IMG/VR virus record: IMGVR_UViG_3300025869_000003
Coordinates: 1-41,275 of that record
DNA length: 41,275 nt
Strand: one strand, 5' to 3'
Source: a virus
Made by a program: the position numbers and the translations under genes. Positions 2,865 to 27,411 of this stretch are shown piece by piece; position 1 is the first letter of the stretch, and every line of letters begins with the position of its first letter. A model generated the notes under the pieces. It ran no database searches. It was not told the origin of the DNA and saw only the letters and a program-made list of their open reading frames with translations.

Positions 2865-3932
2865 ATGAACATTATTAACGAAGAAGACTTGTCAGATATA
2901 TCGACTAGAAAGCTCATTGCTGAGTATCAGGGTATCAATCAAAAGATTGCTCTCCTTGAAATTGAGATTGAGGAACGAAAGAGGGATTTAACCTTCAATG
3001 ATAACTATAAGCGTGAGCTTCGATCTCTTGAAGGCAAGTCCAGCAGAATTAAAGCTGACATCATTAATGGTCATAGACAAATGATGGGTAAGGCTGTCGG
3101 TTATTGCATTAATAAATATGGCGTATGGGATCATGATAAGGGCAAAAGGGTTCCGTTGCATGACCTCAGAGGATTTAGTCAATCAAAAGACAAATACGGA
3201 AAAGTCGTTGAAGTCGATGACGATGAACTTAAATCAGAAGCGTTGTGTCAGTTCCAAAGGACATTACACAAATTTGACTTGAGCAAAGAGAATAGCGACT
3301 TCAGCCAAAATGCCTTCAGAGATATATGCACTCATATAAAAAGACTTTTTGGTATTGCTGGAATGAAAACAAAAAAGAGAAAAGCTATTTGGGCAGAGCA
3401 ATGCTTACAAAAGTTGGTTAATGTCAGAAAGAATGAATGTTTAAGACAAGGCAGAGAAGTTAAATTTAGCGAGGTTGCTAAGATACTTGGCATTAAACAA
3501 AAAGTCGTAGATGGATTGCTATCAATATGCTCTCATACTGAGTCGCTTTACTTGGAAGATATAAAAGGCGGTGGAGTAAAAAGTGACTACTATGATAACG
3601 GCTTGGAAGAAGATTGCCGCGCGGAAGTTGATACCAATGCCAAGGACGATTGGCTTCAGCAAAACGCTGAAAAAATTTGCTCCAGAAAAGAACTTGATGT
3701 TTTAGCCCACCGCCTCATGGAGCCAAAATTATATCTTGTAAGTATTACATCCACTACAGAAGAGTTTCCGGTCGTTGATAATCGTATTAAGGAAATTGAA
3801 AATTTAATCAGTCAAAACAAGTACGATGAAAGATTAGTTGATATGCTCAAAGACTTCTTCGGTTTTGAGCCAAGATCCACTCAGGAACCCGATGTCGATT
3901 TGCTAATCAGACTTGGGATATACGATAACTAA
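2865..3932 (+). CDS. Divergent sigma-70-family-like transcription factor (putative)
   Basis: SEALCQFQRTLHKFDLSKENSDFSQNAFRDICTHIKRLF resembles sigma region 2 (gL..a..kFd...g..Fs.ya...I...I.r). VKFSEVAKILGIKQKVVDGLL and SRKELDVLAHRL resemble regions 3 and 4.1. The region-2 match is interrupted by an insertion. Confidence 0.4.
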   Translation: MNIINEEDLSDISTRKLIAEYQGINQKIALLEIEIEERKRDLTFNDNYKRELRSLEGKSSRIKADIINGHRQMMGKAVGYCINKYGVWDHDKGKRVPLHDLRGFSQSKDKYGKVVEVDDDELKSEALCQFQRTLHKFDLSKENSDFSQNAFRDICTHIKRLFGIAGMKTKKRKAIWAEQCLQKLVNVRKNECLRQGREVKFSEVAKILGIKQKVVDGLLSICSHTESLYLEDIKGGGVKSDYYDNGLEEDCRAEVDTNAKDDWLQQNAEKICSRKELDVLAHRLMEPKLYLVSITSTTEEFPVVDNRIKEIENLISQNKYDERLVDMLKDFFGFEPRSTQEPDVDLLIRLGIYDN

Positions 3933-6900
3933 TTCCTGAAGCGATCCAGCTCTCTTGATGTTGCCATAGACCTAGACATGGCTGGAGCCATAAATCTATT
4001 TTGATTAACGGCTGATGGTGACATCCTATTGGTGTCACCATCATCAGGCATGAATTGCTCTATTTCTTTGGAGCCTTTGCTTTGCCCTTTGGAGTTTTGA
4101 GTTTTAGGTCGAACTCCTTCATTAGTCGTTCCATTGCCTTGTCCCCTACCTCCTTTATTAGCTCTAAGTTTGGTGACGTATCTTTTGGTGTATCCGCTGA
4201 TTGTTTCATTTGTTGATGCTCCTGAGTATCCTAATTCTTTTGCTGTTGAAATCATATAAAACCAACGAATCGCTTGCAAGGCGCTAGTTGGCATTTTCTG
4301 TTTAGTTTTCGTTTCAAATTCCTCCTGAAAGATCTCTGTGAAACGTGTAAATAAAGCGTGTTCATCGACATTTGCTGGAAGACCAGTATTTGGTTTAAAC
4401 ATTCCCTTAAAGTAAGAGCGAATGAATCTAGCCTCCCAAACATCAATCGTGTTGTAGTTGTGATTGCCGATGGTGTTCAAAGTGTAAGCTCCAACTTTTG
4501 GCCCGAAGATAAACATCCTTGGAATAAGCTCATCCTGACCAGTTGCTTGCTTAACGATCCGTCTAATATCTCCGGTCTTTGCAACATTACCAGCATATCC
4601 CATTTTCTTGTTAAACTTATGAAGTTCATTCATGGGAATAGCTTCTTCAAGGTAGTCGATAGCATTCCTGACGCTACCCAGCTTTTTACGAAGCTTATCA
4701 ACGATCAATAACGATCTCGCTTTGGTCGGAGCCGTTGTACCTGAAATCTTAAATGGAGAAGAGGCAATGACAGGATTACCCTTTTCACTAGTTCCCATCT
4801 TGATGTCTTCAATGTCTCCCTTCTCTTTGTACAAGTTAAAGATATTGACTCCATCTCCTACATTAGAAGGCAATTTTGTCCCCGGTGAGGTAAGCCCTAA
4901 CATCGTCTGATAATAAAGGAAATCATCATCGGTTACATTACCATAACCTTCGTTAAGCTCCCTACGAGATGCCTCCATATCCTTATTGTAGTAATCAGCG
5001 AATTGAGGGTTTTCTCGCATAAATGGAGTGACGTCTTCAATCGCTCTTCTAGTAGCCTCACGAATATTCCGCACACTAGCTTTTAGCTGTCCCTTGGTCT
5101 TACGAAGGAGCTTGGGCATAAAGGATCCGAAAAACGCATCCTCTGCACTTTCTGCTACCCTACCTTGCTCTCTCACGATTGCCTTTGCGTCTTCCAACGC
5201 TGGCATGAACATTTGGTCATTTCGATTAGCTTGCTGGGATCGCGTAGCCTCCCTTTCAGATCTGACCTGACCGCTAAAAAGATCGTTTGCTAGAGTTTCT
5301 GTACGAACTTCATCAGCAGATTTATATCCAGCTCTCTTCAATAACTCTTGTGGATTGAAACCAGTCTTAGATTTCTTTGATACTTCCTTGGCGACCAAAG
5401 GTATACTATTATCTGAGACCTTACCGCTGTCCGGCATATAGAGCATGAGATCATCTATCTTGGACTTGTCGGCTGGTAATTCAAATGACCAGCCTCTGTA
5501 CTCACGCTTCCAAGGTCTACGATTAGCATCCATGCCACCAGTTACCTCAAAAGTGTATGGCTGAACTTTACCTCCACCAATCTTCTTACTTATCTTATTG
5601 GCTAAACTTACTAACTCCTTGTCATAGAAGTTTTTCATACCATCACCGCCAAACTCCATGTCTAGCCCAGTATAATAAACCTCTTGAGTGTCAGCGAATT
5701 TTAGTTCGTTTGGATCTGCATTTGCTCTCTTTTCACGAAGATCCTTAACAGCTCTTTCAGTTAAAGTCTTTCCGATGTATTTTTTAAGATCTCTTTCAAG
5801 CAGTTGATTTCTTAGGAGTGAATGAGGACTGCCTTCATGGCTGACTTCTATGCTGTACACATTATCTACGCCCTTGTTTGGAGTATAAACATGGATACTT
5901 TTGATCTTCTTAACCAAACTTGGATAACGATTTAAATGTCCCTGACCTCCCAACCAAGCGACTTTCTTTACTCCACGATTAACTGCATCCTTAATTGCAG
6001 TCTTCAAAGCTAAAGAGGGCCAACTTTTCTTAAATGGAGCATCAGGGACTCCTCCAGCAAGCTCACGCTTTAGATTTAGAAACTTATCATATGCTTTCTT
6101 CTGATCAGTTTCACGAATCCTGAACTGCCTTCCATCCTCAAAACGAGCCTGATACTCTCCATTTTCCGTTTTACTTAGCTGACCTTCGAGCGGTGAATTG
6201 TCATACCCTTCGCTTCTTCCGGTCTGATGCCAATCTGATTGAATTTCCTCGATGAAGAAAGTTTCACCGCTTTGTCTTATGTTGGATCGGATATGAGCAA
6301 CCACATTATTTTCGTCACTAAAATGCGGATCACTCCAAATATACTCGTCACCGCCAAATTTGATTAGAGTCTCTCTATAGTTTTCTCCTCCATCAGTTGC
6401 ATACTCAGGATAAACAGCGTCCCCATCTATATCCTCAGCAACATCGCTTTCGTAGACCTCTCTGATCTCTGCATCTGATGTATTGTTAGCAGAACTTTCT
6501 GCCATTTGTTCCGCATGATATTGTAACTCAGCCCTAGCATCGCTTTCGGATCCATATGTTTGGAGATCTCCAAAATCGCCATACAAAGGTTCGCCATAAA
6601 GATCGATGTACCATCCATTATCATCTTCGCTAAAGGCTACATCCAACTCATCAAGGTAGGTTTCGATTTCACTTTCATAGTAGCGATCACGAAGTTCCAT
6701 AATGTCGGTTGATTCACCAAGATCAGTCCTTTGAAGAACTGGAGATTCACGCTTAATGAATCGTTCAATCTCTTGCCGATCAAAACTCTTTTTTGTCTGC
6801 AAGAAATCGGTAAGACCGATTTCATCTGCATAATTCTTTGCTCCAGCAAACTTGGTCAATGCTGACATGAATTGCTGACCGCTAAACTTGAATTGCTTTA

Positions 6901-9900
6901 TGGTCTCCAAGGCTCCATCCAAAATGTTATCTCGCAGACCCAAGTGATTATAACTAGCAAATCGCTTGCTATCTACTTCTGCTGGAGTTGGAGGAAGCTT
7001 TGGATCGCCTTCCGGTGAGAAAAGAGTGTTCTTATCGGAAGGTTGAAACAACGGCTCACTTTGCCTAAATGGATTGTAGTTGTTCCTGATATTTTCGTAA
7101 TCAAATGCAAAAGCCTTTTTCTCCCCACGCCTTATTCCAGCTAGGGCTTCGACATCGAAAGACTTGAAGCTTTTCTTGATTACTCCTGACTCAAGTAAAT
7201 CCCGAAGCCCAGGTGATGCAATCTCACCAGCAGACTCTTTTAAGCCGAAGGCAACAGTCATTATTTCGTTTTCCTTGCGACCCTCAGGGTTAATTCTTCC
7301 TTCAGGATCTGCTAAGGCTTTCTGCCCTTGTTCTGCTAATCTCTTCTCAAAATCCTTGATGTCCTTTACATAGCCCTTCTCAACTAGAGTTTGCATATTC
7401 TGCCGGACAACAGCTTGGTCGTATCCTAAGACCTTTAATGTTCCAGCGGAGACTTGCCATCCATAGATTGCTACATCACGGATCCTAAATGGATTCTGTC
7501 TTTTAGACTTGGTTCCGCTTCGATAGCCAAAGACAATACCTACCCTTTGATCTATAGCTTCTTGTAAGGCGTTTAAAATAGTCGCAACGTTCCTGAACGG
7601 ATCGTTGCGAGTGAAGATTGTCCTAAGATCGTTGGTCAGCTTTTTGCCGATGAGAAAACCTCGCTTTGTCGTAGACCATCCATCTTCAGGATTTTCCTTA
7701 TAACGCTTTTTCATAGCGTCGATTTCTCTGCGAAGAGACTTGTTTGAAATTACAAGATTCTTGGCATCAGTCAGACTCAAGCCATTACCTCCAAACAATT
7801 CAACAAAGCGATCCTCACCAGTTTGCCCTTTCTTGGGTTGGATCAACATACCCTTCTTTGCTAGTTGCCCTTTCTCATCTAGCTCAATTGCCCTTGCTCT
7901 ACCATAATTCTCATAGACCCTTCGGATCGAAGGATTATCTAACTGAGCTTTTGATATTGGATTGCTCAATGGATTACCTGAGCTTGGTTCTACCACTCCT
8001 AAAATTCCAAGAAGTCTTCTACTGGAATCCAACAGATAGCGTCTTAGTCTTGGATGAAAATTCTCAAATGCATTTGGATCCTTAGTGAACATCATTGCAA
8101 ATTGTTCGGCTCCAATTTCTTGAGCTAGTTTGGAAGCGTCTTTGCCAATCGAAATACCCCCAATCAGTTCTCCCTCTCTTTGAGCCAAGCCTTTTGCGAC
8201 GTCCTCAGAGGTTGCTGGTCTACCCCTTTGCTTTGAATCGTAATCTCTTTGGATAGCAACAGCCGTATCATCTAGGTATATCGGATCTCCAAGAGGATTT
8301 CCTTTGTCATCGTATCTGTAATGAAAGGCTGTACCTTTACCCTCTTTAGTTCTGTACGGCTCAAGCAGTAATTGGAGCATTGTTGGATCATCTCCAATTG
8401 CTCGATAAATGAAATCGTGACCAGTCTCGTGAGCGATCAACTCAGTCGCTACCCTTGAGCTTTGTGGAAGATTACTTTCGTTGATGTAAATAGTCCGACT
8501 TGGCTTATCAAAATGCCCCTTTGGAGCGCGATCCAACTCAGGAAGGTTATTCTGTCTACGAGATTCATTGAGAAAATCTAGGTATGCCTTTGGCTCCATG
8601 ATCATGAACTTCGGAGATCCAATTCCAGCTTCTTGAAGAGTCGATAACATGACCTGAGCTGGTCTAGGCATTTTAACAAATGCCTTCCGCTGATCTTCAG
8701 TTAACTTGTTTTTCATATGAGCATCAATGGAGGCTGTATCTCTCGCAAAATTAGTTTTCCCAGCCTTCATCCCTTGCTGACCAGTTGGAATAAAACCTCC
8801 AGCTAAAAAGCCTCCTCCAGCCATAGCTCCCATATTTTCATAGTCTTCCCCGGCAAGCCCAGCTAGTCCGGCATTTATGGCTCCAACGCTGACTCCGTTA
8901 GCAACCATGTTGAACATCGCATCACCTACCGCAGTTCCATAGTGATTATAAGCATACATCGCTCTTTTTCGTGTAGATGGAGAGACTTTGCTGTTGGTAG
9001 CCAAACGATATAAAAACCTTTTGTTGCTGGCTGGCTGACCAAGAGTTTTGAGAACTTCACCAAATCCTAATCCTACTTTTTTAGCAATTAGCCCGACCCC
9101 TTCAGCGATACCAAGCTCCATTGCCAATGGGATAGATCCAGTCACACCTCCGACCAACTGACCTCCAACTGCAAAACCGCTTACATCTTCTGCCTTCTTG
9201 CTGATAGCTTTCGCTGTTTTCTCAACTGCCTTTCTTGGGAGTGATGCCATAAAAGCCGTCCCTTGCCCTAGTCTACCAACTCCTTTAAGACCGACTCCAG
9301 CTACATAGGAAGTCCCCTTTAATCCTTTCCTTAAAGCTTTAGCCGTTACCCTTGCTGCCATTTCTGTCGGGTACGCTCCGATCTTTCCAGCAATATCAAC
9401 TCCTCTTTCAAGCTTCTGTACAGCTCGTCTAGAACTTTTCATCTTGTTGGCAACATTTACTAGACCCTGAGATCTAGAAAGTTTTGCTCCAGCAGTCAGT
9501 CCAGCTTGGGTTGCCCTTAATGTTGTTTTGGTAGCAAACGCTCCAGCCTTTGCGACCGGAAAGATCATAAATGGATCTACGAAGTTTGCTCCAAATGAAA
9601 CTAATTTTTTATGCTCAATGTCATCGCTTTCAAGCATCTTTGGACGAACCTTTTCATAGTAGTCAAAGTTTTCCCGATACCGCTTATATTCTCGCTGTAT
9701 TTCTTCTGCGGTAGAATATGGCCCAGCCTTATCCATGATGGCTCCACCCAAGGTTTTTGCGAATCTAGTAAAGTCTCTAGATCCTATATTAAGAATATCT
9801 CCAAGTGTATCGTAATCGGCTAAAGCTCCTACTCCAGTCGCCCAATACCAAGGAACCTCTTCTAATGCTTCACCTCCTTCTTTAGCCATTCCTTTTACAC

Positions 9901-10129
9901 CTTCGACAAGACCAGTCCCAAAAGCAGATGCTTTTTCACTCGTAGACTTAACAGAGTCTGCTCGTCTCTTTTCTACAAACTGATCTATCGACATTGGAGT
10001 ACTAGCAATTCTTTGCTCCACCGCATTAATTTGAGAAAGAACATCAGCTTGGGAGATGAAATCTTTTTCTATCCCAAGCTTGTTCTCCAAGGCGTTAATC
10101 TTGGATAGTACTTCTTGTTCCGAAGGCAT
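3929..10129 (-). CDS. Giant (2066 aa) virion-associated polyvalent-like protein / ejected internal protein with a zincin HExxH motif
   Basis: It is the last gene of the late operon, after two other internal-protein-like genes. The N-terminal ~450 aa are Gly/Ala-rich with hydrophobic stretches (VGGQLVGGVTGSIPLAMELGIAEGVGLIA, GAINAGLAGLAG...GGGFLAGGFIP). LIAHETGHDF (HExxH) is encoded at 8417..8431. GENYRETLIKFGG...HFSDENNVVAHIRSN...FFIEEIQSDWHQ...PDAPFKKSWPSLALK resembles, from memory, a module seen in large phage/plasmid polyvalent proteins. Confidence 0.55.
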   Translation of the reverse strand: MPSEQEVLSKINALENKLGIEKDFISQADVLSQINAVEQRIASTPMSIDQFVEKRRADSVKSTSEKASAFGTGLVEGVKGMAKEGGEALEEVPWYWATGVGALADYDTLGDILNIGSRDFTRFAKTLGGAIMDKAGPYSTAEEIQREYKRYRENFDYYEKVRPKMLESDDIEHKKLVSFGANFVDPFMIFPVAKAGAFATKTTLRATQAGLTAGAKLSRSQGLVNVANKMKSSRRAVQKLERGVDIAGKIGAYPTEMAARVTAKALRKGLKGTSYVAGVGLKGVGRLGQGTAFMASLPRKAVEKTAKAISKKAEDVSGFAVGGQLVGGVTGSIPLAMELGIAEGVGLIAKKVGLGFGEVLKTLGQPASNKRFLYRLATNSKVSPSTRKRAMYAYNHYGTAVGDAMFNMVANGVSVGAINAGLAGLAGEDYENMGAMAGGGFLAGGFIPTGQQGMKAGKTNFARDTASIDAHMKNKLTEDQRKAFVKMPRPAQVMLSTLQEAGIGSPKFMIMEPKAYLDFLNESRRQNNLPELDRAPKGHFDKPSRTIYINESNLPQSSRVATELIAHETGHDFIYRAIGDDPTMLQLLLEPYRTKEGKGTAFHYRYDDKGNPLGDPIYLDDTAVAIQRDYDSKQRGRPATSEDVAKGLAQREGELIGGISIGKDASKLAQEIGAEQFAMMFTKDPNAFENFHPRLRRYLLDSSRRLLGILGVVEPSSGNPLSNPISKAQLDNPSIRRVYENYGRARAIELDEKGQLAKKGMLIQPKKGQTGEDRFVELFGGNGLSLTDAKNLVISNKSLRREIDAMKKRYKENPEDGWSTTKRGFLIGKKLTNDLRTIFTRNDPFRNVATILNALQEAIDQRVGIVFGYRSGTKSKRQNPFRIRDVAIYGWQVSAGTLKVLGYDQAVVRQNMQTLVEKGYVKDIKDFEKRLAEQGQKALADPEGRINPEGRKENEIMTVAFGLKESAGEIASPGLRDLLESGVIKKSFKSFDVEALAGIRRGEKKAFAFDYENIRNNYNPFRQSEPLFQPSDKNTLFSPEGDPKLPPTPAEVDSKRFASYNHLGLRDNILDGALETIKQFKFSGQQFMSALTKFAGAKNYADEIGLTDFLQTKKSFDRQEIERFIKRESPVLQRTDLGESTDIMELRDRYYESEIETYLDELDVAFSEDDNGWYIDLYGEPLYGDFGDLQTYGSESDARAELQYHAEQMAESSANNTSDAEIREVYESDVAEDIDGDAVYPEYATDGGENYRETLIKFGGDEYIWSDPHFSDENNVVAHIRSNIRQSGETFFIEEIQSDWHQTGRSEGYDNSPLEGQLSKTENGEYQARFEDGRQFRIRETDQKKAYDKFLNLKRELAGGVPDAPFKKSWPSLALKTAIKDAVNRGVKKVAWLGGQGHLNRYPSLVKKIKSIHVYTPNKGVDNVYSIEVSHEGSPHSLLRNQLLERDLKKYIGKTLTERAVKDLREKRANADPNELKFADTQEVYYTGLDMEFGGDGMKNFYDKELVSLANKISKKIGGGKVQPYTFEVTGGMDANRRPWKREYRGWSFELPADKSKIDDLMLYMPDSGKVSDNSIPLVAKEVSKKSKTGFNPQELLKRAGYKSADEVRTETLANDLFSGQVRSEREATRSQQANRNDQMFMPALEDAKAIVREQGRVAESAEDAFFGSFMPKLLRKTKGQLKASVRNIREATRRAIEDVTPFMRENPQFADYYNKDMEASRRELNEGYGNVTDDDFLYYQTMLGLTSPGTKLPSNVGDGVNIFNLYKEKGDIEDIKMGTSEKGNPVIASSPFKISGTTAPTKARSLLIVDKLRKKLGSVRNAIDYLEEAIPMNELHKFNKKMGYAGNVAKTGDIRRIVKQATGQDELIPRMFIFGPKVGAYTLNTIGNHNYNTIDVWEARFIRSYFKGMFKPNTGLPANVDEHALFTRFTEIFQEEFETKTKQKMPTSALQAIRWFYMISTAKELGYSGASTNETISGYTKRYVTKLRANKGGRGQGNGTTNEGVRPKTQNSKGQSKGSKEIEQFMPDDGDTNRMSPSAVNQNRFMAPAMSRSMATSRELDRFRN

Positions 10130-10131
10130 AA

Positions 10132-11544
10132 TTATTCCAAAAGATCTCCACTCTCGACTCTATCAAGAAGTGGGCTATTTCTTGTTGGTACTGGAGTTCT
10201 TTGAACTGGTGTTGGGGCGTTATTGCCCATCTCTGATTCATACCCAAGATTCCTCTTACTCTCCATTTCTTCCAACTCTTTCAATCTTGCTAATAGCTCA
10301 GGAGAAGCCTCTGCATTAGGATCTCCGGTCACTTGTGAAGTCGCTGGCATTTGTAGAATTTCTTTGTAATTAGAGTCGTTAGGATGAAGGTAAGGATGAT
10401 TACCTCTTCCATGAACCACATCATTATAAACATGACGAAGTAGACCTAAGTTATACTTCAAGTCCTTATCATCCTGAGCTTGATCTAGGTTACCAAAAAC
10501 CGCTTGTAATGAACTAAGCTCCTGATTGGAGACCTGACCTAAGGCTCCTCCAGTTGGCGATGCTTCACGCATCGCCTGAAGCTTATCGAAACCTATATTA
10601 GCTTTGATCGTCTCTAATGATTTGTTGAGAGCCAAAGCGTCTGTTTGAGGTATCGATTTTAAGAATGATCCAAATCCAGTTGAGTATGGAGTTATCAAAC
10701 CAAAAGATCTATCGATAGTGTCATTCACAACTAGCGAACCACTCAAATCAGCTTGTTTTCCCTCCCCTTGTTTCAAGTTGTGTTTGAATAACTCAAGACT
10801 GACCTTGTCATCAAACTCAGCCTCACGACTCGCTTGTTCCTGAGCGATTGCTTTCTTTTCCTCAATCATGGACATTCCAACTCTCGGAGAAATTTTACCT
10901 TCTTTAACAGCTTCTTGAACATTTCTTCCAAAACCTTTAAAGCGGTCAGGTAATTCTTGAACTACTGGAGAATCTTCTTGGATCATCTTTGCTGGTGGAG
11001 GAAGTGGTTCACCCTTCATAAGAGCTTCTTGGACTCTTCTACCTCCCTCTGATCTAGTTGGCATTCTTTCGGTAGGAGAAATCATCAAACGATTGCCAGC
11101 TTCCAATTCATCCTCAAGTTCTTGTTCCTTCTGTTGACCTTGATTATACTTATCAATATTGAATCCCAACTGATCCTCCTGAACGCCCACTTGCCGACCT
11201 TGAATATCTATTTGACGATCACCTTGAGCAAGCTGGGCATCATTTACCCTACGAGTCTCATCCATTTGCATGAACTGCTGTAGCATCTTTCCGACTTGCG
11301 GATCTCGTGAAGCAATCTTGGCTTGCTCAGGTTGCATCCCAGCGGAAATAAATGCGTTTTCTGCTAGTTGTTGATTTTCCTTCTTTTCTTTATTTTCTGC
11401 GTTTTTTGCGATAGCTCCACCGATTGCTATTCCCAATTGGTTAAAGGCATTTGCAAAAGATCGCCCAGGCGCTGTCGCTGATTGCATATCCATCCTCGCA
11501 ATTGGAGGAGCTGGGGTTTGTCCGTAAAATGGTCTTCTACTCAT
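10132..11544 (-). CDS. Virion internal/ejection protein candidate (470 aa, Gln/Glu-rich, coiled-coil-like)
   Basis: The call rests on its position between the 498-aa and 2066-aa genes (analogous to podovirus internal core genes), its biased composition, and an aggagga SD upstream. Confidence 0.35.
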   Translation of the reverse strand: MSRRPFYGQTPAPPIARMDMQSATAPGRSFANAFNQLGIAIGGAIAKNAENKEKKENQQLAENAFISAGMQPEQAKIASRDPQVGKMLQQFMQMDETRRVNDAQLAQGDRQIDIQGRQVGVQEDQLGFNIDKYNQGQQKEQELEDELEAGNRLMISPTERMPTRSEGGRRVQEALMKGEPLPPPAKMIQEDSPVVQELPDRFKGFGRNVQEAVKEGKISPRVGMSMIEEKKAIAQEQASREAEFDDKVSLELFKHNLKQGEGKQADLSGSLVVNDTIDRSFGLITPYSTGFGSFLKSIPQTDALALNKSLETIKANIGFDKLQAMREASPTGGALGQVSNQELSSLQAVFGNLDQAQDDKDLKYNLGLLRHVYNDVVHGRGNHPYLHPNDSNYKEILQMPATSQVTGDPNAEASPELLARLKELEEMESKRNLGYESEMGNNAPTPVQRTPVPTRNSPLLDRVESGDLLE

Positions 11545-11555
11545 AAAATATCCTC

Positions 11556-13052
11556 CTATCTAAAAAGCCCTGTTCCTCCCTTTGCCATACCGCCTATAAT
11601 TCCACCGCCCATTCCCATTAACCCTTGTAACACACCAGCCCGATTTGAAGCTGTTGCGGTTCGAGCATCCATCTGTCCCTGATAGTTTTGTGTCGCAAGC
11701 GCTCCAGCATATTGAGACTCAGGATTAAATATCGCTGGGCTTGAATCTAATGAAAATCCGGCTGATCCGAATTGCTGTTGAGCCATCATTGGGGCATTAC
11801 CTGATCTTCCGGTCAAAGCTTGAAGAACATCAAAGTTACCCATCTGATACGCGGTTCCAGCATTCTGTAAAGCTTGCTGGCGGTATGCTTGCTGGTTTGA
11901 AATTGCTCTAGCGTAATCATTTTCTCTTTGCCTTCCATATTGATCACGATTGGTAAGAGCGTTTATGAGACCACTAGTTCTGTCCTTACCTAATTGACGA
12001 TTTGCAGACAGCCTTTGTTCCACGGCTGACGCAAATGTGGCTCTCTGATCTTCCATCCCCCGATCACTAGCTCCCTCTAAAATTTGTTGATCCAAGTCTC
12101 GTTGCTCAGTCTCAGTTAAACCCTGACCAGCTTGATATTCCTCTCTCGCTTGATTTACAATTCTGTCAAAATCCTCTGAACCTCCAAGGTTCTGTTGTTT
12201 ATCAGAAACCATATCATCAAATGGATTTTCCGCACGAAGACCTTCTTTTGCACTACCCATTATGTCTTGCCTTATACCTTCAGCTAACGGATCGGCAGAC
12301 CTTTGGGCTTCTACAAGTTTTGGGCCAAGGTCTTGTATCATTTGAATTTCATCAGCGGTTGCCCTCGCCTTCTGTCTTCCTTGGGCTGGTACAATATGAT
12401 CTTCATATGCCTGAAGTAGCCCCATACTTGGGTCTAAACCAAGCTGTTCTAACATGATCCCCCTTTCAAGGTTTGCATATTGGGGACGAAACTGAGCTTC
12501 GTTACGATATAGATCAGGAGCTAAATCTACTTGAGCTTGTAATGTGTCTCTTGTTTCCTGACCATAGTTTCTTGGTGGAGGAGCATCTACATCTCCTTTT
12601 TTATAAGAAGGAACACCTCCAGCAGAAGGCTTTCCCGATCCTCCCATATTTTTAAGTACTGCTTCCTCAAAAGGATTAATAAAAGCAAGTCTCTCACCAG
12701 TCGGAGCGTTTTGATTTAAAACTTGAGCTGACTTTTTTAATGTAGGACTTTGAGAGATAGCGTCTTCTTGTGGGTTTACTGGATCGTAGCTTGGTACAGC
12801 GTTTGGGTTATATTTCTTTGCTGTTCCATACTTTCCTCCCCCACCATAATTAAATGCATTTTGATTCATTGCTGTATACTGGGGAACTTGCAATTCTGCT
12901 CCGCGTTTATTAGCTACCCCAAGCATAGGGTTATCTTGGGCGTCTTGGCTGTTCATCGGTCTAAACGATTGCGAATACATCTGCCCTGATGAATCCATAA
13001 AAACTGGTGTATATTGTTTTCTCGGAGGTGTCTTTTCTGAATTAAACTTCAT
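11556..13052 (-). CDS. Virion internal protein candidate (498 aa, Gln/Gly/Asn-rich, Gly-rich C terminus)
   Basis: The call rests on position. LAFINPFEEAVLKNMGGSGKP resembles a motif I associate with internal proteins of marine podoviruses. The C terminus is GLMGMGGGIIGGMAKGGTGLF. Confidence 0.35.
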   Translation of the reverse strand: MKFNSEKTPPRKQYTPVFMDSSGQMYSQSFRPMNSQDAQDNPMLGVANKRGAELQVPQYTAMNQNAFNYGGGGKYGTAKKYNPNAVPSYDPVNPQEDAISQSPTLKKSAQVLNQNAPTGERLAFINPFEEAVLKNMGGSGKPSAGGVPSYKKGDVDAPPPRNYGQETRDTLQAQVDLAPDLYRNEAQFRPQYANLERGIMLEQLGLDPSMGLLQAYEDHIVPAQGRQKARATADEIQMIQDLGPKLVEAQRSADPLAEGIRQDIMGSAKEGLRAENPFDDMVSDKQQNLGGSEDFDRIVNQAREEYQAGQGLTETEQRDLDQQILEGASDRGMEDQRATFASAVEQRLSANRQLGKDRTSGLINALTNRDQYGRQRENDYARAISNQQAYRQQALQNAGTAYQMGNFDVLQALTGRSGNAPMMAQQQFGSAGFSLDSSPAIFNPESQYAGALATQNYQGQMDARTATASNRAGVLQGLMGMGGGIIGGMAKGGTGLFR

Positions 13053-13431
13053 TTTCTGCTACCTTTCTGTACATAGTTTCCCATTTATAAGTTCTAATCT
13101 TTGTATCGCCATTTGGTGTTATTCTGCGAAACATCACAAATGGTAGTGGGCTTACATTATCCATCATTGCCTTTAGCTGACCCTGACCAGCTACCCAACG
13201 AACATACCATGTGTCAGGATTTTTCACATACCATTGCCCTTGCGGATCTGCGGAACCATCAATTGGTTTTAGCATCATAAAAAGCTGTGGATTGGAGATT
13301 ACAAGACCTCCAATCAAATAGTTATGCATCTCTTTAAAAAACTCTGATTTGTTTTCGTACAAAGAGACCACTTGCTCAAATGGTGGCAAATGCTTGAGCT
13401 TGTTTAAAAGTTCTATTTTTAGGCTACCCAT
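13042..13431 (-). CDS. Hypothetical protein (129 aa from MGSLKIELL)
   Basis: An ATG at 13431 shares one base with the tail-fibre stop (TGATG junction). The longer 13458 start would overlap the fibre gene by 28 nt. Confidence 0.5.
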   Translation of the reverse strand: MGSLKIELLNKLKHLPPFEQVVSLYENKSEFFKEMHNYLIGGLVISNPQLFMMLKPIDGSADPQGQWYVKNPDTWYVRWVAGQGQLKAMMDNVSPLPFVMFRRITPNGDTKIRTYKWETMYRKVAENEV

Positions 13432-14849
13432 CACAAAGCTGAAATGATGAATGCCCATAATTCATCATACCTTACCGACATTTCTTCCTTCTTAGTTGCC
13501 CCCTCAAACTCGGCAGTCTCTTGCTTGCGGTTGCCGTCCTCATCTTCACCAACCCAAACATCGTATTTCTTGAGGATTCCGTATTTTGATGGGTCTAAAC
13601 CTTCATCAATAAAGGCTTGCTCTAAGTCTTGAGCGATAATTCCAAAGTGAGTTTTAGCTCTCTCTTTTTTGCTTTCAACTGCGATCTTGTATTTGAATTT
13701 TCGGATCAAACCTTTCGCTTTAACCGCTACTCTTTTCTCAACCTCATCCAACTCCTCAATATCAGTTTTTAAGTCTCGGTCTGAACTTGTATCTACTGCA
13801 TAACCAGTAAAGATTCTACCCCATCTTCTAGTAGGTATCCCGAAGGTATACTCAAATGAATATGGTAAAACTGATGATGTGTAGAAAATGTTCGCACTAC
13901 TAGTATCTTGGTATGCTTGGAATCTAAATTTTAATCCATTGTCGTAGAAGAATGGGGGCCAAGCTCCTACGATTTTTTGAAATCTGAAGTCGTACTCCAA
14001 AGCATCAAAACCGACACCTCCTGTAAATCTGCTCCAATTTGCAAAATGTTCATGCTGAACAACACCGGGATTTCCTTCAAAGCCATTGATCGTTGGATGA
14101 TATGAATAAACCGATTGTTTGATCGTAGCAAAATTATTAGAGGCGTAAGAAACACCATTTATAGTTTTACTTGGTGTACCTCCATTAGATGTGTAAAGAC
14201 CTCGATGACCTTGTGTACCATCGGGCCACTCCCGAAGGTCTTGATGAATATTTAGAACCAAAGCTCCATCAGAATGACTCGTGTTGTATTCTTCTGCATC
14301 GATGTATAAATTTTTATCAATCGTTACACTATACCCACTTTCTTGAGTAGCGTTGCCAAGAGCAACTTCACCACTAGTATTTTGATTTGAACCTCCACCG
14401 CTACTCGCGCTCAAGCCATCTAACTTAGTCTTATCAGTAGAAGACATAAAACCAGCGCTTGATGAACTTGCATTACTATGAGTGTGAGCGGATGGAGTAA
14501 CTGTTAAGCCACTCGCAAGCTTTGAAGAATCTATAGCTCCATTTGCAATTTGAGTAGAAGTTACTGATTGGTTAACCAACTTATCTCCATTGATGGAATT
14601 AGAGGTAAAATTGTTATTATTGATTACAATAGTATCGTTCCCTGAGATTGCATCAGATGCCAATTTTTCAGATGTAATTCCACCATCCTTGATCTTCAAA
14701 TATCCATCTGCATGAACCTCAAGTGTTGAATCATCAGTTGTGTTTCCAGCTCCAGCAACAAACTGGGCATTGTCCACGTGTTCATTTAAATTATTTGCAG
14801 TAACAGAAGAGCCTTCTGCGTAAGTTGTTCCTTTGTTTAAAATAGCCAT
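13431..14849 (-). CDS. Tail fibre with a C-terminal intramolecular chaperone (peptidase S74-type) auto-cleavage domain
   Basis: TSSDRDLKTDIEELDEV...THFGIIAQDLEQAF...VRYDELWAFIISAL matches the S74 chaperone pattern (S-D-x-x-x-K cleavage motif, hiGfiAQev). It also has the fibre motif SAGFMSSTDKTKLDGL and N-terminal KLAS/SKLAS repeats. Confidence 0.8.
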   Translation of the reverse strand: MAILNKGTTYAEGSSVTANNLNEHVDNAQFVAGAGNTTDDSTLEVHADGYLKIKDGGITSEKLASDAISGNDTIVINNNNFTSNSINGDKLVNQSVTSTQIANGAIDSSKLASGLTVTPSAHTHSNASSSSAGFMSSTDKTKLDGLSASSGGGSNQNTSGEVALGNATQESGYSVTIDKNLYIDAEEYNTSHSDGALVLNIHQDLREWPDGTQGHRGLYTSNGGTPSKTINGVSYASNNFATIKQSVYSYHPTINGFEGNPGVVQHEHFANWSRFTGGVGFDALEYDFRFQKIVGAWPPFFYDNGLKFRFQAYQDTSSANIFYTSSVLPYSFEYTFGIPTRRWGRIFTGYAVDTSSDRDLKTDIEELDEVEKRVAVKAKGLIRKFKYKIAVESKKERAKTHFGIIAQDLEQAFIDEGLDPSKYGILKKYDVWVGEDEDGNRKQETAEFEGATKKEEMSVRYDELWAFIISAL

Positions 14850-14851
14850 GA

Positions 14852-17257
14852 TTAAGTTACAGATGTGGTTTGTCGGTTAATAATTCTTGAGTCCAGTTTG
14901 ACTGCCCTGACATAGGGTCTGCCTTTGGTTGGAGTAATTGTTGCAGAGCAACCATACCCTCTTAGCCTGACGCTTGATCGAATGCTGGTATCTTCATTAG
15001 AGTCTAATTCTGCTCCAAGTAGGGTATCCACACTTCTAGCAGATCTTACTGAATCAGGATCAGTTGTTTGAAATTGAATTGTTCCATTACTCTTGGAAAA
15101 AGGGCTAGATTTCATATGAACTTCAGCCCTATTAAAGTTCTTTCTATTGATCGTCTTAAACGCGTATTCCCTTGTTCTTAGTTCGCTTGAGACATCAAGT
15201 ATTTGAGGTGATGCAGTAGCTGTCGTTATGCTGATCTGATCACCGCCCTCATATCCTTCGTATTTGTGGATAGATCCACTTGAACTGATAAGGTATAAAA
15301 AGTTTTGAGATCCCTCTCTACCAACTACCATATCTCTGACATTGAATGTCAGGCTGTTAATTGAATCGATTGATTCCCAGCCTTGGTTGATGAAATTGTA
15401 AACAAGGATGTGAGAATTTTCTACTGCTCCATCTAAAGGTACTGCCAAGAAATATCGGTTATCGAAATAGACTCCAGTCGCCTGATCAACATACTGCTGG
15501 TTGATCCTTTGCATGGTTGGAGTGATCGGCTCTGATAATGGAACTTCTAGTCCACGAAGATTGTACTCATCCATAAAGGTAAGTGCGTACACACCTTGGT
15601 CGCTAAGAAAGATCATCTTGTTTGCGACCTGGGCTACTGAGTTTCTTGACGCACATCCTAGATCAGGAGTGATCACATTAACCTGAACATCCTGAAGGGA
15701 TCCGCTTACTCCATTTAGACGATGGACGGATCGCCTACCGAAAACCACCAAGGTGTTTTCGGTAAAAGGTTCAATTGCTGTGATGAAGTCTGAACTGCCT
15801 CCGGTTATTTTAAATTGATTCCCGATTACATCATAAGTGTCAGAATCCAAAATGTCAGAAGCGATGATTTCATCTGTAGTTGGACGCTTTGTTGGATTTG
15901 AATCAGAGGTAAAGAAATAAGGAAGCCAAAGCCTCCTCTGATTCAATACTCCAAAGGGGGCAGCAGGTTGGTGAATAAAGTAAGATATTGGAGTCCGTTG
16001 TGATAAGACGAGCAACTCACTTGCGGTGTCCTCTACTGCTAAATTAAACTCAAATGAATCAGCAGTTGTGGATGAGACTTTAACTTTTGTATCAGCAAGA
16101 TTCGAGAAATTACCCTCCCCTTTCACAATGGTTAATTCCTGACCAAGTTCTAACCCATGATTGGTCTCATTGATAGTTACCACTCCATTTGCTGATGTCG
16201 CGTTAGAATCAATAATGTAACTGGGCATTGTATACTGACCGCTTTTTACATTAGTGAAATTAGAGAAGTAACCAGCGCTTGCTCCAAAGACATTGTAAGT
16301 TTCAGAGCCACTATTTTCTATCTCATAGGTGAAGCTATTAGCTGTTGCTGATGTTACTAAATAAGCCCCATTGGGATTTGTTGTGAAGTTTTGTATTCCT
16401 GAAATAGTGACATAGTCATTACCATTTAAACCATGTCCGGTCGCATTAATCGTAACTACACTCCCACTTAAAGAAGCGCTAGTGATTAATGCCGTTGATA
16501 AAATAGGCGTTGAGACCAATGTTGTTTTATCTTGCCGGAATATAAAAAGCTTACTGAAGGCTTGAAGCAACTGACATCGCTTAGTTACGCGTTCACCTGA
16601 TGGATAATTAGCTCTAAACTCTAGCTTGTCCTTGAGTCTAAGTATAGAGCAGTAGCTATCTGTGGCTGTGAAGATAAAATCATCAATAAACTCAGAGCTT
16701 GGGTCTGAGAATAATGCAGACCCAAATACACTAGTGGCTGAACCTTGATCTAATAAAGTAAAATCAAGTTTTGTAGAAATTCTTGATCCTCCATCAGCAA
16801 TTGAATTTTCAGAACAAACGAAAAATTCATCTCCTCCAACCTGAGCAAATTTAATCTCTTTGTTTACAAAGCTAATTGAGGAGATTGTGTAAGTTCCATT
16901 TGGGTCTGTAGTAAATCCAGTAATGCCTTCAATGGTTATTTGATTTCCGACCTTAAAGCTTCTATTCGGGCTAAAGCGTAAAGTTATTGTTATTACATCA
17001 TTTTCCCTATTTGCCTTGGTTATAACAAACGGCAGTAAAGTAGAGTTTTGATCTAGTGTAATTTTACCAGCAAGAGTTTCGACTCCCTTTCTAGGTTGCC
17101 AAGTTCCATCAATATCCATTCGTCCATTTTTACTTAATTGAACTTCTCCAGCCTGAAGTTGTGATGGGCGAACACGACTATTCATTCTGTTAAAGAATGT
17201 ATCACCCTCTTCGATATAAGGGTCATCTAATTTGCCATATGCCCGGTAACGACTCAT
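14852..17257 (-). CDS. Large tail structural protein (801 aa; tail tubular B / nozzle-like) with three internal ~50-aa repeats
   Basis: The size and the position upstream of the fibre fit this role. The repeats are VITITLRF..GNQITIEGITGFTTDPNGTYTISS, VVTINATGHGLNGNDYVTISGIQNFTTNPNGAYLVTS and VVTINETNHGLELGQELTIVKGEGNF. No family-level motif was confirmed. Confidence 0.45.
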   Translation of the reverse strand: MSRYRAYGKLDDPYIEEGDTFFNRMNSRVRPSQLQAGEVQLSKNGRMDIDGTWQPRKGVETLAGKITLDQNSTLLPFVITKANRENDVITITLRFSPNRSFKVGNQITIEGITGFTTDPNGTYTISSISFVNKEIKFAQVGGDEFFVCSENSIADGGSRISTKLDFTLLDQGSATSVFGSALFSDPSSEFIDDFIFTATDSYCSILRLKDKLEFRANYPSGERVTKRCQLLQAFSKLFIFRQDKTTLVSTPILSTALITSASLSGSVVTINATGHGLNGNDYVTISGIQNFTTNPNGAYLVTSATANSFTYEIENSGSETYNVFGASAGYFSNFTNVKSGQYTMPSYIIDSNATSANGVVTINETNHGLELGQELTIVKGEGNFSNLADTKVKVSSTTADSFEFNLAVEDTASELLVLSQRTPISYFIHQPAAPFGVLNQRRLWLPYFFTSDSNPTKRPTTDEIIASDILDSDTYDVIGNQFKITGGSSDFITAIEPFTENTLVVFGRRSVHRLNGVSGSLQDVQVNVITPDLGCASRNSVAQVANKMIFLSDQGVYALTFMDEYNLRGLEVPLSEPITPTMQRINQQYVDQATGVYFDNRYFLAVPLDGAVENSHILVYNFINQGWESIDSINSLTFNVRDMVVGREGSQNFLYLISSSGSIHKYEGYEGGDQISITTATASPQILDVSSELRTREYAFKTINRKNFNRAEVHMKSSPFSKSNGTIQFQTTDPDSVRSARSVDTLLGAELDSNEDTSIRSSVRLRGYGCSATITPTKGRPYVRAVKLDSRIINRQTTSVT

Positions 17258-18472: not shown

Positions 18473-18892
18473 TCATTTCGTCGGAAAAGGTGGACGAGTT
18501 AGGTGTTTTTGAGCCTCAGACCTCGAACATTTTCGAGCTACAAATATTGGGATCGCAAGGTAGCAAAGAAGAACTACAAAAGCTCCTATCAGGATTCGTT
18601 TGATTGTGGTTGTGAATGATTCAAATCCGCTGGCGTGTTGCTCCATTCCCTTCTCGACCAACTTTTGTACATCGCCATGAGATAAAGCTGAAATGGTTTC
18701 TCTCGCCTCTTCAATTTCCGCATTACCTTTAACAACCTCACCTATCAATGCTCCACCTCCAGCTCCAAGAGCAGATCCAACTGGGCCACCTAATGATCCA
18801 GCTCCACCGCCAACTACAGCTCCCATAGTTGGATACCATTGCTTCATTGAACAACCAGCAAGAAGAGTCAGGCATATGATTAATAGTTTCAA
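18473..18892 (-). CDS. Lipoprotein with a glycine zipper and a C-terminal TM helix (unimolecular-spanin-like topology)
   Basis: Lipobox LTLLAGC after a TTG start that overlaps the sulfotransferase stop. It has the glycine zipper GAVVGGGAGSLGGPVGSALGAGGGALIG and the C-terminal TM ILIGAFVVLLCYLAIPIFVA. Confidence 0.55.
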   Translation of the reverse strand: MKLLIICLTLLAGCSMKQWYPTMGAVVGGGAGSLGGPVGSALGAGGGALIGEVVKGNAEIEEARETISALSHGDVQKLVEKGMEQHASGFESFTTTIKRILIGAFVVLLCYLAIPIFVARKCSRSEAQKHLTRPPFPTK

Positions 18893-19536
18893 AATGTGTA
18901 ACCTCCTAGCTCTACATCTCTCGCAAACAAAGTTGCTATTCTTTCGGCTAACTCATCGTCGTAGTAATTCCTATAATCGCCTCTTTTGGTAGTGTTGATT
19001 TTCTTGGGCTTAGGTAGTTTAGTGAAGGAACAAAAGTCATCCCATTGGTCTTCTATCCTGAACCATTTACCTTCGCCTTCTAGCCATGAATATTGGTCAT
19101 CATCCTGACCCCATGCTCGACAAGTTTTTTCGTTGTATTCAAACTGCCTTCCATGTCCATCTACGAAGAATCCACCATCCATCCAAGATTCTTTGAAACC
19201 TTGCTTTGTTAAGATTCCATGATCTATCTGACCCCAATCCTGATCTAGGTTTTTAGAAGCGTTTTTAAGGTTGTAGGTATAAATTGATAATGCCCTATCC
19301 CAAGGATTCCGTAACAATGCAACTGGGGTTAATCCCTTTACTTCAGGACGCTCTGACCAATAGTTCCATTTGTTATGATGAGCCTGAGGTTTAACCTCAA
19401 ATGCATCGACTTGGTAATGAGATCTTTCGCTTTCAAAATCAGGATTACTATACCTGAGAAAAGGAGCCTCTACAGATGTTCCAGCATTCTTGGGAACATG
19501 AACAAAAGCCCAGGTATTTACCTTGCTATATAGCAT
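18889..19536 (-). CDS. Sulfotransferase (Sulfotransfer_2-like, PAPS-dependent)
   Basis: FVHVPKNAGTSV is a 5'-phosphosulfate loop of the hiPKtgGTS type. LLRNPWDRALSIY is a 3'-phosphate motif of the RdPxxRxxS type. The C-terminal NTTKRGDYRNYYDDELAERIATLFARDVELGGY matches the family's tail pattern. The ATG at 19536 is preferred over the TTG at 19542. Confidence 0.7.
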   Translation of the reverse strand: MLYSKVNTWAFVHVPKNAGTSVEAPFLRYSNPDFESERSHYQVDAFEVKPQAHHNKWNYWSERPEVKGLTPVALLRNPWDRALSIYTYNLKNASKNLDQDWGQIDHGILTKQGFKESWMDGGFFVDGHGRQFEYNEKTCRAWGQDDDQYSWLEGEGKWFRIEDQWDDFCSFTKLPKPKKINTTKRGDYRNYYDDELAERIATLFARDVELGGYTF

Positions 19537-27125: not shown

Positions 27126-27411
27126 TCCTTTTAACTTTCAATGGCTTGTCTAAAAAGTGGTTGCCGTTAGCTCTAACAACACATTTGGAGACATTGTCAA
27201 AGTCGCCAAAATGGATAAATATGATCCTTGGATTGGGGCATAATTTGTAGACCCACGCTTTGAGTTCCTCACCTTGTAGCTTTTTATCAGCCTTTAATAT
27301 TCTTCCTACGCTGGCAGTACTTATTCCTAGATCCTTAGCAATCTTGGCGTTAGTGACTCCATCAGCTTTTAGCTTTAAAACTTCCTTAATTTTGTCTCCT
27401 GAAATTTTCAT
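27088..27411 (-). CDS. HTH DNA-binding protein (107 aa); regulator or small-terminase-like candidate
   Basis: GVTNAKIAKDLGISTASVGRILKA is an HTH. The ATG at 27411 forms an ATGA overlap with the methyltransferase stop. Confidence 0.5.
   Translation of the reverse strand: MKISGDKIKEVLKLKADGVTNAKIAKDLGISTASVGRILKADKKLQGEELKAWVYKLCPNPRIIFIHFGDFDNVSKCVVRANGNHFLDKPLKVKRIETSDEELFREI

Follow-up and report, generated by a model that had tools for sequence, protein, structure and literature searches.

Record IMGVR_UViG_3300025869_000003 of the IMG/VR virus collection, analysed here over its full 41,275 nucleotides (the window), contains a giant open reading frame (ORF) at 3929..10129 on the minus strand, which runs unbroken from an ATG start through 2066 codons to a stop codon at 3929-3931 and takes up 15.0% of the window. 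A first reading of the sequence alone had described this ORF as closing the late operon after two others of 498 and 470 residues, and its product as a mosaic of the polyvalent kind with a zincin HExxH motif; both descriptions are borne out, every peptide quoted in that reading lies where it was placed, and our results support its core view: a polyvalent mosaic, encoded last in a late operon and bearing a conserved zincin motif. To this we add a fixed carrier/cargo architecture, a family-wide [FY]-M-P motif at the module borders, a conserved C-terminal tail, the total exclusion of cysteine, and two cargo families without assignment.

The giant gene and its late-gene block

The gene is no artefact of assembly, since a separately assembled contig (P0001) encodes a protein 99.9-100% identical to it over residues 391-2066, and a 40.2-kb contig from a marine single-cell genome (L004) carries a collinear, full-length orthologue. 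It is the final gene of the late, virion-encoding strand block, and converges with a plus-strand ORF at 2865..3932. Immediately upstream on the same strand lie the ORF of 470 residues (10132..11544), the end of which is separated from the start of the giant by 2 nucleotides, and that of 498 residues (11556..13052). Together with genes for a 138-residue protein and a 472-residue tail fibre with an S74 intramolecular chaperone domain (13431..14849), these form a run of four late genes (10132..14849, minus strand). Homologues of all four precede the giant elsewhere: the order of 801-residue gene, fibre, 138-, 498- and 470-residue genes and giant is repeated in four other loci drawn from metagenomes and genomes (L001, L002, L004, L005), and the position at the end of the late operon is thus a conserved one.

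Genes for 138, 498, 470 and 2066 residues in a row, with the largest last, have the gene order of the ejection operons of podoviruses, where the small-medium-largest order serves as the mark of recognition when sequence similarity fails (PMC8954989). For the 470-residue neighbour there is a weak match (E = 1.5e-5) to a PHROG annotated as 'released from the phage upon host infection', and we consider the 470-, 498- and 138-residue proteins to be candidate ejection-protein partners of the giant. The comparison with T7 gp16 suggested in the sequence-only reading did not extend to the protein itself: there is no homology between gp16 and the giant, and the resemblance is one of gene order only.

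The window is a temperate phage genome or prophage, with a recognisable integrase (33453..34808), a major capsid protein of 342 residues (21347..22375), a scaffold-like protein, a helicase-primase and an exonuclease. The context for delivery that goes with the polyvalent class is therefore present, in that capsid protein, tail fibre and integrase are all encoded in the window and the giant ends the late block. The source is a temperate, probably short-tailed, uncultured marine phage.

A fixed carrier and exchangeable cargo

Searches of Pfam, PHROGs and NCBIfam with the full giant returned nothing significant; at the DNA level no match was found in 50,697 phage records, and tblastn against the same records gave one distant match, to a Dolichospermum phage and in the central module only. 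Relatives come from elsewhere. A first search with the full protein yielded 36 of them, and a profile of the carrier from the zincin to its end found 94 representatives among 1.84 billion proteins, all from uncultured phages. In every full-length family member, this zincin-to-end region starts at residue ~400-475, with total lengths of ~1200 to 3218 residues, and it is the constant start position that marks the carrier as the fixed N-terminal unit of a small family. Over residues 1-~1040, P0002-P0029 align with the giant at 35-93% identity; in most relatives unrelated sequence takes the place of the middle part, and residues ~1637-2066 reappear in a subset of them at 57-68% identity. In the closest relative, P0002, an identity of 93% extends as far as residue 1030, and beyond it the two proteins are unrelated; the cargo has therefore been exchanged recently, at precisely this point.

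A conserved carrier of ~1030 residues defines this small protein family, and the C-terminal half is a string of interchangeable modules. The giant has at least four modules, none of which matches a named polyvalent Pfam domain, whereas sisters with the same carrier do have such domains: in their cargo regions we find ART-PolyVal, DUF3990, PBECR5, DUF7178, GNAT and ASCH, as covered by the known polyvalent-protein repertoire (Iyer et al., PMC5512222). In the viral structure library BFVD, the carrier matches close relatives from uncultured marine phages and, also significantly, giants of uncultured Caudovirales annotated as 'ART-PolyVal-like domain-containing'. The mosaic, polyvalent interpretation gains support from these relatives, as it does from the wider distribution of the central module described below.

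The AlphaFold model of the carrier (residues 1-1030; 29-sequence alignment; mean predicted local distance difference test, pLDDT, of 59.7) consists of low-confidence helices over residues 1-470, and reaches moderate confidence (pLDDT 70-86) over residues 470-1020. It opens with a pair of similar helices within residues 4-43 (10001..10120, minus strand; model helices 4-18 and 27-43), where the duplicated segment of the first reading is located, with VLSKINALENKL at residues 7-18 and VLSQINAVEQRI at residues 30-41; the pair is weakly conserved in relatives. Hydropathy and composition define a Gly/Ala-rich helical region at residues ~183-470 (8720..9583, minus strand), with 31% Gly plus Ala and an AlphaFold confidence below 50. 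It is thus ~270-290 residues long, and not the 400 or so initially estimated. Two segments only reach transmembrane-like hydrophobicity, residues 319-349 (nucleotides 9083-9175) and 408-427 (nucleotides 8849-8908); both are glycine-zipper-like, and many of the Gly, Pro and Asn positions are invariant. From these conserved hydrophobic segments, which are modelled with low confidence, we infer that the region could be a membrane-active or conduit part of the protein.

An N-terminus of 470 helical, Gly/Ala-rich and hydrophobic residues would also suit a tail tape-measure protein, if the phage were long-tailed and its tube genes had escaped recognition. Several tape-measure entries do occur amongst the weak BFVD fold matches of the helical N-terminus (E = 0.045 and weaker), and many genes of the window are without annotation. 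Yet amongst the ORFs of the window Pfam, PHROGs and NCBIfam identify no family of tape-measure, tube, sheath or baseplate proteins, enzymes make up the cargo, and a protein of 2066 residues would specify a tail of ~300 nm, unlikely for a 41-kb genome. Moreover, the giants of relatives with the same upstream genes, and with them the same virion module, range from 1348 to 2189 residues, and a length ruler should not vary so. We regard a tape-measure role as exceedingly improbable.

The zincin-like metallopeptidase region occupies residues ~505-685 (8075..8617, minus strand). The peptide LIAHETGHDF lies at residues 564-573, and HETGH at residues 567-571, exactly at the nucleotides first reported (8417-8431). 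All 25 of the 25 close relatives have this HExxH motif unchanged, and nearly all distant relatives retain it; a lack of conservation, which the first reading had named as a refutation, is therefore not what we see. A second element ~100 residues further on, LAQEIGA(E/D)QF(A/S)M, is likewise invariant in all 25; here the invariant helix LAQEIGAEQFAM (residues 668-679, nucleotides 8093-8128) provides E671 and E675 as candidates for the third zinc ligand. The predicted order of elements - strand 507-511, helix 513-526, strands 538-541 and 546-550, HExxH helix 554-578, an insert, and helix 665-681 - agrees with that of the zincin core in polyvalent-protein peptidases, in which a variable insert separates two C-terminal helices (PMC5512222). 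We call the region zincin-like and of unassigned family; it matches none of the Pfam polyvalent peptidase models, and by its motifs and predicted order of secondary structure it may be catalytically competent.

One candidate class, the M78 (ImmA/IrrE) zincins, was suggested by the combination of HExxH with a downstream Glu helix of the ExxA(N/E)xFA type (ExxAExFA-like in the giant), by the source annotation of a single relative, P0016, as ImmA, and by the cleavage of ImmR by ImmA at Phe95-Met96 (PMC8960796), the same dipeptide as the core of the junction motif. It found no support: in 10 members there is no Pfam M78 match even at E <= 10, no IrrE-type match appears in PDB profile searches, and no IrrE among the fold matches, which are headed by anthrax lethal factor. 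The annotation of P0016 is uncorroborated by profiles or folds, and the shared Phe-Met dipeptide is a parallel only.

The remainder of the carrier is an alpha/beta part at residues 686-1026 (7052..8074, minus strand), delimited by conservation and modelled at pLDDT 70-86, which contains an invariant DPEGRINPEG at residues 941-950 and ends in NIRNNYNPF. Within it, the β-rich residues ~851-904 (nucleotides ~7418..7579, minus strand) give a weak Pfam match to WYL (E = 0.16) and fold matches to PafBC/BrxR (probability ~0.5-0.6); judging from the model, this stretch may be a WYL/SH3-like barrel that binds a ligand or nucleic acid.

The first cargo module spans residues 1031-1562 (5444..7039, minus strand), with a conserved core at residues ~1235-1520 (nucleotides 5570-6427). 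It holds the central-module peptides singled out in the first reading: GENYRETL from residue 1248, NVVAHIRSN from 1275, FFIEEIQSDWHQ from 1291, PDAPFKKSWPSLALK from 1362 and VAWLGGQG from 1390. Its 138 relatives are mostly stand-alone proteins of 600-900 residues, and its invariant polar residues N1250, Y1251, E1253, R1281, E1295, Q1297, S1298, D1299 and R1305 suggest an enzyme-like module. The module is poorly modelled in the joint cargo alignment, and no counterpart was found in Pfam, PHROGs, NCBIfam or the PDB (where the profile search gave nothing below E = 0.1). In agreement with the first reading, cargo 1 also occurs, at ~30% identity, inside polyvalent giants of 2600-3200 residues that carry LPD, ART and Zeta-toxin Pfam domains, and a further relative sits within an unannotated protein of 2387 residues in the 209-kb cyanophage Dolichospermum phage Dfl-JY45 (L006, PP438435.1 66403..73566), the only deposited phage amongst the 50,697 records with a relative of this module.

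In two P22-like head modules, on contigs of 44-57 kb, the portal gene is followed immediately by a stand-alone copy of cargo 1 (L007 8001-10361 and L008 8001-10184). This slot usually holds packaged minor head proteins, and the placement of the two copies points to an association of cargo 1 with the phage head. Neither a carrier relative nor the junction motif is present in L007 or L008, and Phage_Mu_F finds no match in the giant or in 42 cargo-1 relatives. As a separate observation, many of the stand-alone relatives (P0037-P0156) end in repeated DPLxQFLG elements.

The second cargo module, residues 1644-2024 (4058..5200, minus strand), is mostly helical and very confidently modelled (pLDDT 90-98 over residues ~1667-1997); the C-terminal peptide FGPKVGAYTLNTIGNHNYNTIDVWEARF quoted in the first reading falls within it, at residues 1875-1902. 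Amongst PDB structures, Foldseek found no fold match better than E = 0.7. Cargo 2 is found in ~13 of 29 relatives, always as the last module, with identities of 57-68% in P0003-P0010 and 51% in P0030, and of 80-96% to the L004 orthologue in 50-residue windows across residues ~1650-2000. By hhalign, it shares homology with the last cargo module in P0019-type members (93%, E = 3e-7); a relationship to DUF7178 was considered and is unsupported by hhalign. Of its stand-alone homologues, which add little, one has the look of a giant gene broken into pieces, and the other is found at the margin of a bacterial contig. Anti-defence functions had been amongst the activities proposed for the giant, and in neither cargo module is there anything that specifically points to one.

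The protein closes with a basic tail at residues 2029-2066 (3932..4045, minus strand), which includes NRFMAPA at residues 2044-2050 and terminates in ELDRFRN. Within the last ~20 residues, the pattern NRF(M/L)xPA...(E/D)RFR(N) is conserved in 19 of 29 relatives, whatever cargo precedes it.

Module borders and the exclusion of cysteine

Every module border carries a short motif of the [LMQ]-[FY]-M-P type. The modules of the giant meet at four such related sequences, all of them in linkers modelled at pLDDT below 50: LFQP at residues 1027-1030 (7040..7051), LYMP at 1563-1566 (5432..5443), MFMP at 1640-1643 (5201..5212) and QFMP at 2025-2028 (4046..4057), all on the minus strand, to which RFMAP in the tail (2045-2049) may be added. 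The first is the border of carrier and cargo 1, at which P0002 diverges; every family member has [LF][FY]xP at this position, and the L004 orthologue MFMP. At the second junction, the orthologue has LFMP at the aligned position amid insertions and deletions. A spacer of 73 residues then leads to the third (residues 1567-1639; 5213..5431, minus strand), with low pLDDT and 24-34% identity to the orthologue, where it contains a deletion. The third junction directly precedes cargo 2 and is MFMP in the orthologue too; xFMPALEDAK is kept here in at least 8 relatives, despite different modules upstream. The fourth is QFLP in the orthologue and QQF(L/F)P in relatives. A fifth occurrence, the FMP of residue 1670, is not conserved and forms part of a folded helix.

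The same signature, in the form ...L-F-M-P-(A/S)..., recurs at module borders throughout the variable regions of relatives. Each protein has 1-7 copies of FMP, where ~0.1 would be expected, and none of them before residue ~970, whilst the broader pattern [FY][MLIFQ]P reaches 5.19 per 1000 residues in cargo halves versus 0.31 in carriers. When cargo halves were compared with each other, 44% of 432 internal BLAST breakpoints fell within 12 residues of a motif, as opposed to 12 +/- 1.6% for random positions (maximum 16% in 500 trials). In close-clade cargo, 59 [FY]MP were seen against 2.0 expected, and in distant-clade cargo 32 against 2.1; in seven carrier-less polyvalent giants that share cargo modules, there were 0 against 1.3 expected. 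The carriers of the distant clade end in ...N-Y-M-P, and the motif persists down to carriers of less than ~30% identity. No other protein encoded in the window has the F-M-P form, and matches to the looser pattern are limited to three sites, all of them Y-L-P and in unrelated ORFs.

In the L004 orthologue, the motifs stand at aligned positions, whereas the flanking linker residues differ and contain insertions and deletions. Fixed as it is whilst its linkers diverge, the junction motif itself appears to be subject to selection. The same orthologue also has an extra segment of ~115 residues between carrier and cargo 1 (its residues ~1059-1175), flanked by EPMFMP and EPMYMP, which looks like a natural module insertion at a junction.

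Two other origins of the motif were considered. The junction Met is unlikely to be an internal start codon, since L, I, F and Q are tolerated in its place (LFQP, FIP, FLP, FFP) and it is the [FY] and the P that are conserved. Nor do the junctions look simply like the fused 'MP...' N-termini of once-separate genes, as an initial MP is present in only 30% of the stand-alone homologues of cargo 1, and some of these homologues carry the motif internally, after a leader; such an origin explains part of the pattern at most.

A second signature of the giant is the absence of cysteine. Its 2066 residues contain none, where 25.9 would be expected from the average of 1.25% in the other ORFs of the window (P ~ 5e-12). 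The four genes upstream (470, 498, 138 and 472 residues) have none either, so that five consecutive late genes amount to 3644 residues without a single cysteine (P ~ 1e-20); the capsid protein, the 694-residue portal-sized protein and the 801-residue protein do contain it. Across 29 relatives of the giant (~50,000 residues) there are again 0, and amongst the cargo-1 relatives in the matches listed (n = 120, P0037-P0156), 1 in 84,517 residues. We posit that this exclusion could be the signature of proteins that have to pass, unfolded, along a narrow channel and across an oxidising compartment. In the open-access reviews on ejection proteins that our literature search found, the word cysteine is absent, and the junction motif, the conserved tail and the cysteine exclusion all appear to be undescribed before.

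The giant could also be a late-expressed but unpackaged polyprotein of the cytoplasm, which might serve, for instance, as a toxin or as an exclusion factor within the lysogen or the cell that produces it; packaging is so far an inferred step, and in relatives the giant gene adjoins the integrase/replication side of the genome. However, the 2-nucleotide gap couples its translation closely to the late genes upstream, and with these it has the total exclusion of cysteine in common. Its domain kin are typical of delivered proteins, and stand-alone copies of cargo 1 sit in head modules. An unpackaged product is, on these grounds, very improbable.

Proposed packaging, delivery and processing

Giant polyvalent proteins are widespread in phages, and their packaging, delivery and splitting are almost wholly conjecture. 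The closest tested analogue of the giant is gp47 of the Stx phage phi24B: a polyvalent protein of 2811 residues with LPD5, LPD1, LPD38, MuF-C and metallopeptidase domains, abundant in virions by mass spectrometry, invisible in the cryo-electron microscopy map, and proposed to be a packaged ejection protein. In both cases, a giant single ORF of a temperate, short-tailed phage (in ours, probably short-tailed) combines polyvalent-type domains with a metallopeptidase domain (in ours, a putative one). They differ in that gp47 has no sequence similarity to the giant detectable by tblastn, and has Pfam-recognisable domains where the giant has none; junction motif, conserved tail and cysteine exclusion are not mentioned in the passages of the phi24B account on which we draw.

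By this analogy, together with gene position and the exclusion of cysteine, we would propose the following. The giant would be packed into the capsid with the small and medium cysteine-free proteins encoded just upstream, in an order like that of gp14, gp15 and gp16, and would exit via the tail channel at infection. Its hydrophobic front part would help to build or anchor a trans-envelope conduit, such that the cargo half arrives in the cytoplasm. The polypeptide would be cut at or next to the [FY]-M-P junctions, either in the head or after ejection, and the most economical candidate for the protease is the giant's own zincin; cutting would free cargo 1, enzyme-like, and cargo 2, helical and without a known structural relative, as separate proteins. 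The motif is most simply read as a processing site, given its place at module borders, the disordered linkers, a protease-like domain in the same chain, and the published prediction of zincin-mediated autoprocessing for polyvalent proteins in general (PMC5512222). That the giant is a virion-associated polyvalent carrier-cargo protein we consider likely; that it is cut at its junctions by its own zincin seems to us rather less likely than not. As a whole, the composite of a capsid-packaged, ejected carrier-cargo polyprotein, processed at its junctions and possibly by its own zincin, seems to us to fall just on the probable side.

Several observations weigh against this proposal. The case for packaging, ejection and cleavage is indirect throughout, as is that for a short tail, which is probable from the absence of recognisable long-tail genes only; since the presumed portal and terminase also escape Pfam, PHROGs and NCBIfam, that absence is suggestive rather than conclusive. 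Neither cargo module has a Pfam family. For the zincin region, no match passes the Pfam cut-off: individual members give sub-threshold matches to Zn_peptidase_2, eCIS_core, M4, reprolysin-like and M91 families (best E = 0.0012), its profile finds nothing below E = 0.1 amongst PDB sequences, and the best PDB fold match of the carrier in Foldseek, anthrax lethal factor, is below significance (E = 0.02-0.05, probability ~0.3). Such weak matches as there are lead to zinc peptidases only. The conserved Glu helix is also weakly helix-turn-helix-like (E = 0.5). In two members, P0185 and P0186, TEELGHH replaces HExxH whilst the F-M-P junctions are kept, which would mean either an inactive zincin or a shifted usage of ligands. 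Furthermore, ~20 stand-alone cargo-1 homologues have [FY]MPD after a leader of 40-50 residues with no carrier in the same protein, and the motif is thus not strictly dependent on a zincin in cis; one such leader-bearing copy, L011, lies amongst early genes, with no protease candidate there. Lastly, stand-alone proteins and giants alike have related (E/Q)QF(L/M)(G/P) elements in their C-terminal tails, which does not sit well with strict self-processing.

These last three observations would be at home with a motif that is functional without being a substrate of the zincin: it might be cut by a protease of the phage head or the host, or act as a docking signal to the capsid interior or portal, as capsid-targeting sequences do. 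Such a role is possible, but the window contains no recognised prohead protease, and a scaffold-like gene is present separately from that of the 342-residue capsid protein. Amongst the proteins of the window the F-M-P form is confined to the giant, and across the wider family the enrichment of the motif tracks the carrier and is absent from carrier-less polyvalent giants. Another protease or a docking role strikes us as quite unlikely.

Alternatively, the giant could be a purely structural ejection protein, a very large gp16-like part of the conduit that is never cut, with a zincin that acts on the cell wall or on host envelope proteins and [FY]-M-P motifs that are the linker joints of recombination. 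Its gene order is that of a podovirus ejection operon, its hydrophobic Gly-rich segments are conserved, and similarity breakpoints coincide with the motif as recombination joints would; indeed, the authors of the phi24B study read gp47 in this manner. Zincin domains are also present in the N4 virion RNA polymerase and in two plasmid proteins, ArdC and TraC1, all three of which are nonetheless transferred unprocessed (PMC5512222). On the other hand, a fixed conduit would not be expected to vary so widely in cargo content and length between close relatives, nor to include cytoplasm-directed enzymes such as ADP-ribosyltransferases and the RNase-like PBECR5. The motif is kept at orthologous positions where the neighbouring linker residues are not, and its persistence down to carriers of less than ~30% identity argues for selection on the motif rather than shared linker ancestry. 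We would call this structural role unlikely, though it is one to be taken seriously beside an ejected and processed polyprotein.

Comparison with other systems places the giant near several classes, of which it fits the polyvalent one by architecture and context. Like the polyvalent proteins described before (PMC5512222), it appears to join many unrelated domains in one chain around a zincin-like hub, has relatives with ART, PBECR and GNAT cargo, and is encoded beside virion genes. It differs in that its family has a fixed N-terminal carrier with cargo always C-terminal to it, in the border motif and common tail, which are specific to this family, and in a zincin and two cargo modules that lie outside the Pfam models. 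With T7 gp14/gp15/gp16 and P22 gp7/gp20/gp16, it has in common the small-medium-largest order at the end of the virion genes and the hydrophobic segments. T7 gp16 needs its basic C-terminus for infectivity (PMC8954989), to which the ...RFRN tail of the giant may be likened by analogy, not homology. There is no similarity to these proteins in sequence or fold (BFVD matches to internal virion protein and LT_GEWL entries have E of at least 0.04) and the giant, with its exchangeable enzyme cargo, has no transglycosylase domain; gp16-like proteins also measure 609-1337 residues (PMC8954989) versus 2066.

The N4 virion RNA polymerase and P1 DdrB/DarB are likewise very large, capsid-packaged, injected and endowed with a zincin-like domain, packaging being for the giant a presumed property, and P1 DdrB is proteolytically processed (PMC5512222). 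Unlike them, the giant has no RNA polymerase, helicase or methylase domain, and the fold match of its carrier to an N4-like virion RNA polymerase is not significant (BFVD; E = 0.006, probability 0.47). MuF-fused effectors, in which MuF/gp7 is joined to C-terminal toxins, offer the parallel of a conserved virion-anchoring N-terminus with variable C-terminal effectors, and stand-alone cargo-1 homologues occupy the portal-adjacent slot typical of MuF; by contrast, the giant has no MuF domain, a carrier several times larger, and several serial cargo modules with a border motif. Membership of the tape-measure, MuF-fusion, N4 virion RNA polymerase and M78 classes was tested in each case, and in each case the giant falls outside.

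What the family offers is a concrete handle on polyvalent delivery: a border motif, an invariant candidate protease in the same chain, and natural swaps of cargo. Should the motif prove to be a processing site, no cleavage signal of a phage polyvalent protein would have been defined before it, and it would suggest a way of loading foreign proteins into phage particles for delivery. Perhaps the principle is broader still, that of a self-processing injected effector polyprotein in which the carrier forms part of the ejection conduit and bears a site-specific zincin, any module between [FY]-M-P tags could be added, to be carried through the tail and set free in the host cytoplasm, and cysteine exclusion is the general signature of such travel; we offer this generalisation tentatively, and with more doubt than conviction. 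Complete exclusion of cysteine, seen also in more than 100 portal-adjacent relatives of cargo 1, could be a cheap, genome-wide predictor of ejected proteins. The two conserved modules without a family are flagged in their own right, one of them with a confidently predicted fold that has no solved relative.

Elsewhere in the window, a 475-residue C5 cytosine DNA methyltransferase (27408..28835, minus strand; Pfam E = 2e-41) sits between a terminase-sized ORF (29562..31190) and the portal-sized ORF (24802..26886), both of which are without a portal or terminase family match in Pfam, PHROGs and NCBIfam. The 801-residue late protein (14852..17257, minus strand) has a Pfam match to the FCCH domain of the ubiquitin-activating enzyme E1, just above the threshold (30.0 bits versus a cut-off of 29.5), and gives weak PHROG matches to amidase, head-closure and internal-virion families. 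As to possible host leads, the closest collinear relative of the window, L004 (CACFTI010000022.1), belongs to a marine single-cell genome labelled uncultured Verrucomicrobia (AG-908-P09), where its contig is about as large as a phage genome, and a more distant collinear relative, L005 (NZQM01000244.1), to a Parvibaculum metagenome-assembled genome. Finally, a galactose-3-O-sulfotransferase-like gene (18889..19542, minus strand; PHROG E = 1.6e-10) lies within the structural block between the capsid and tail genes, and may be a moron or an enzyme that modifies the surface of the virion or the host.

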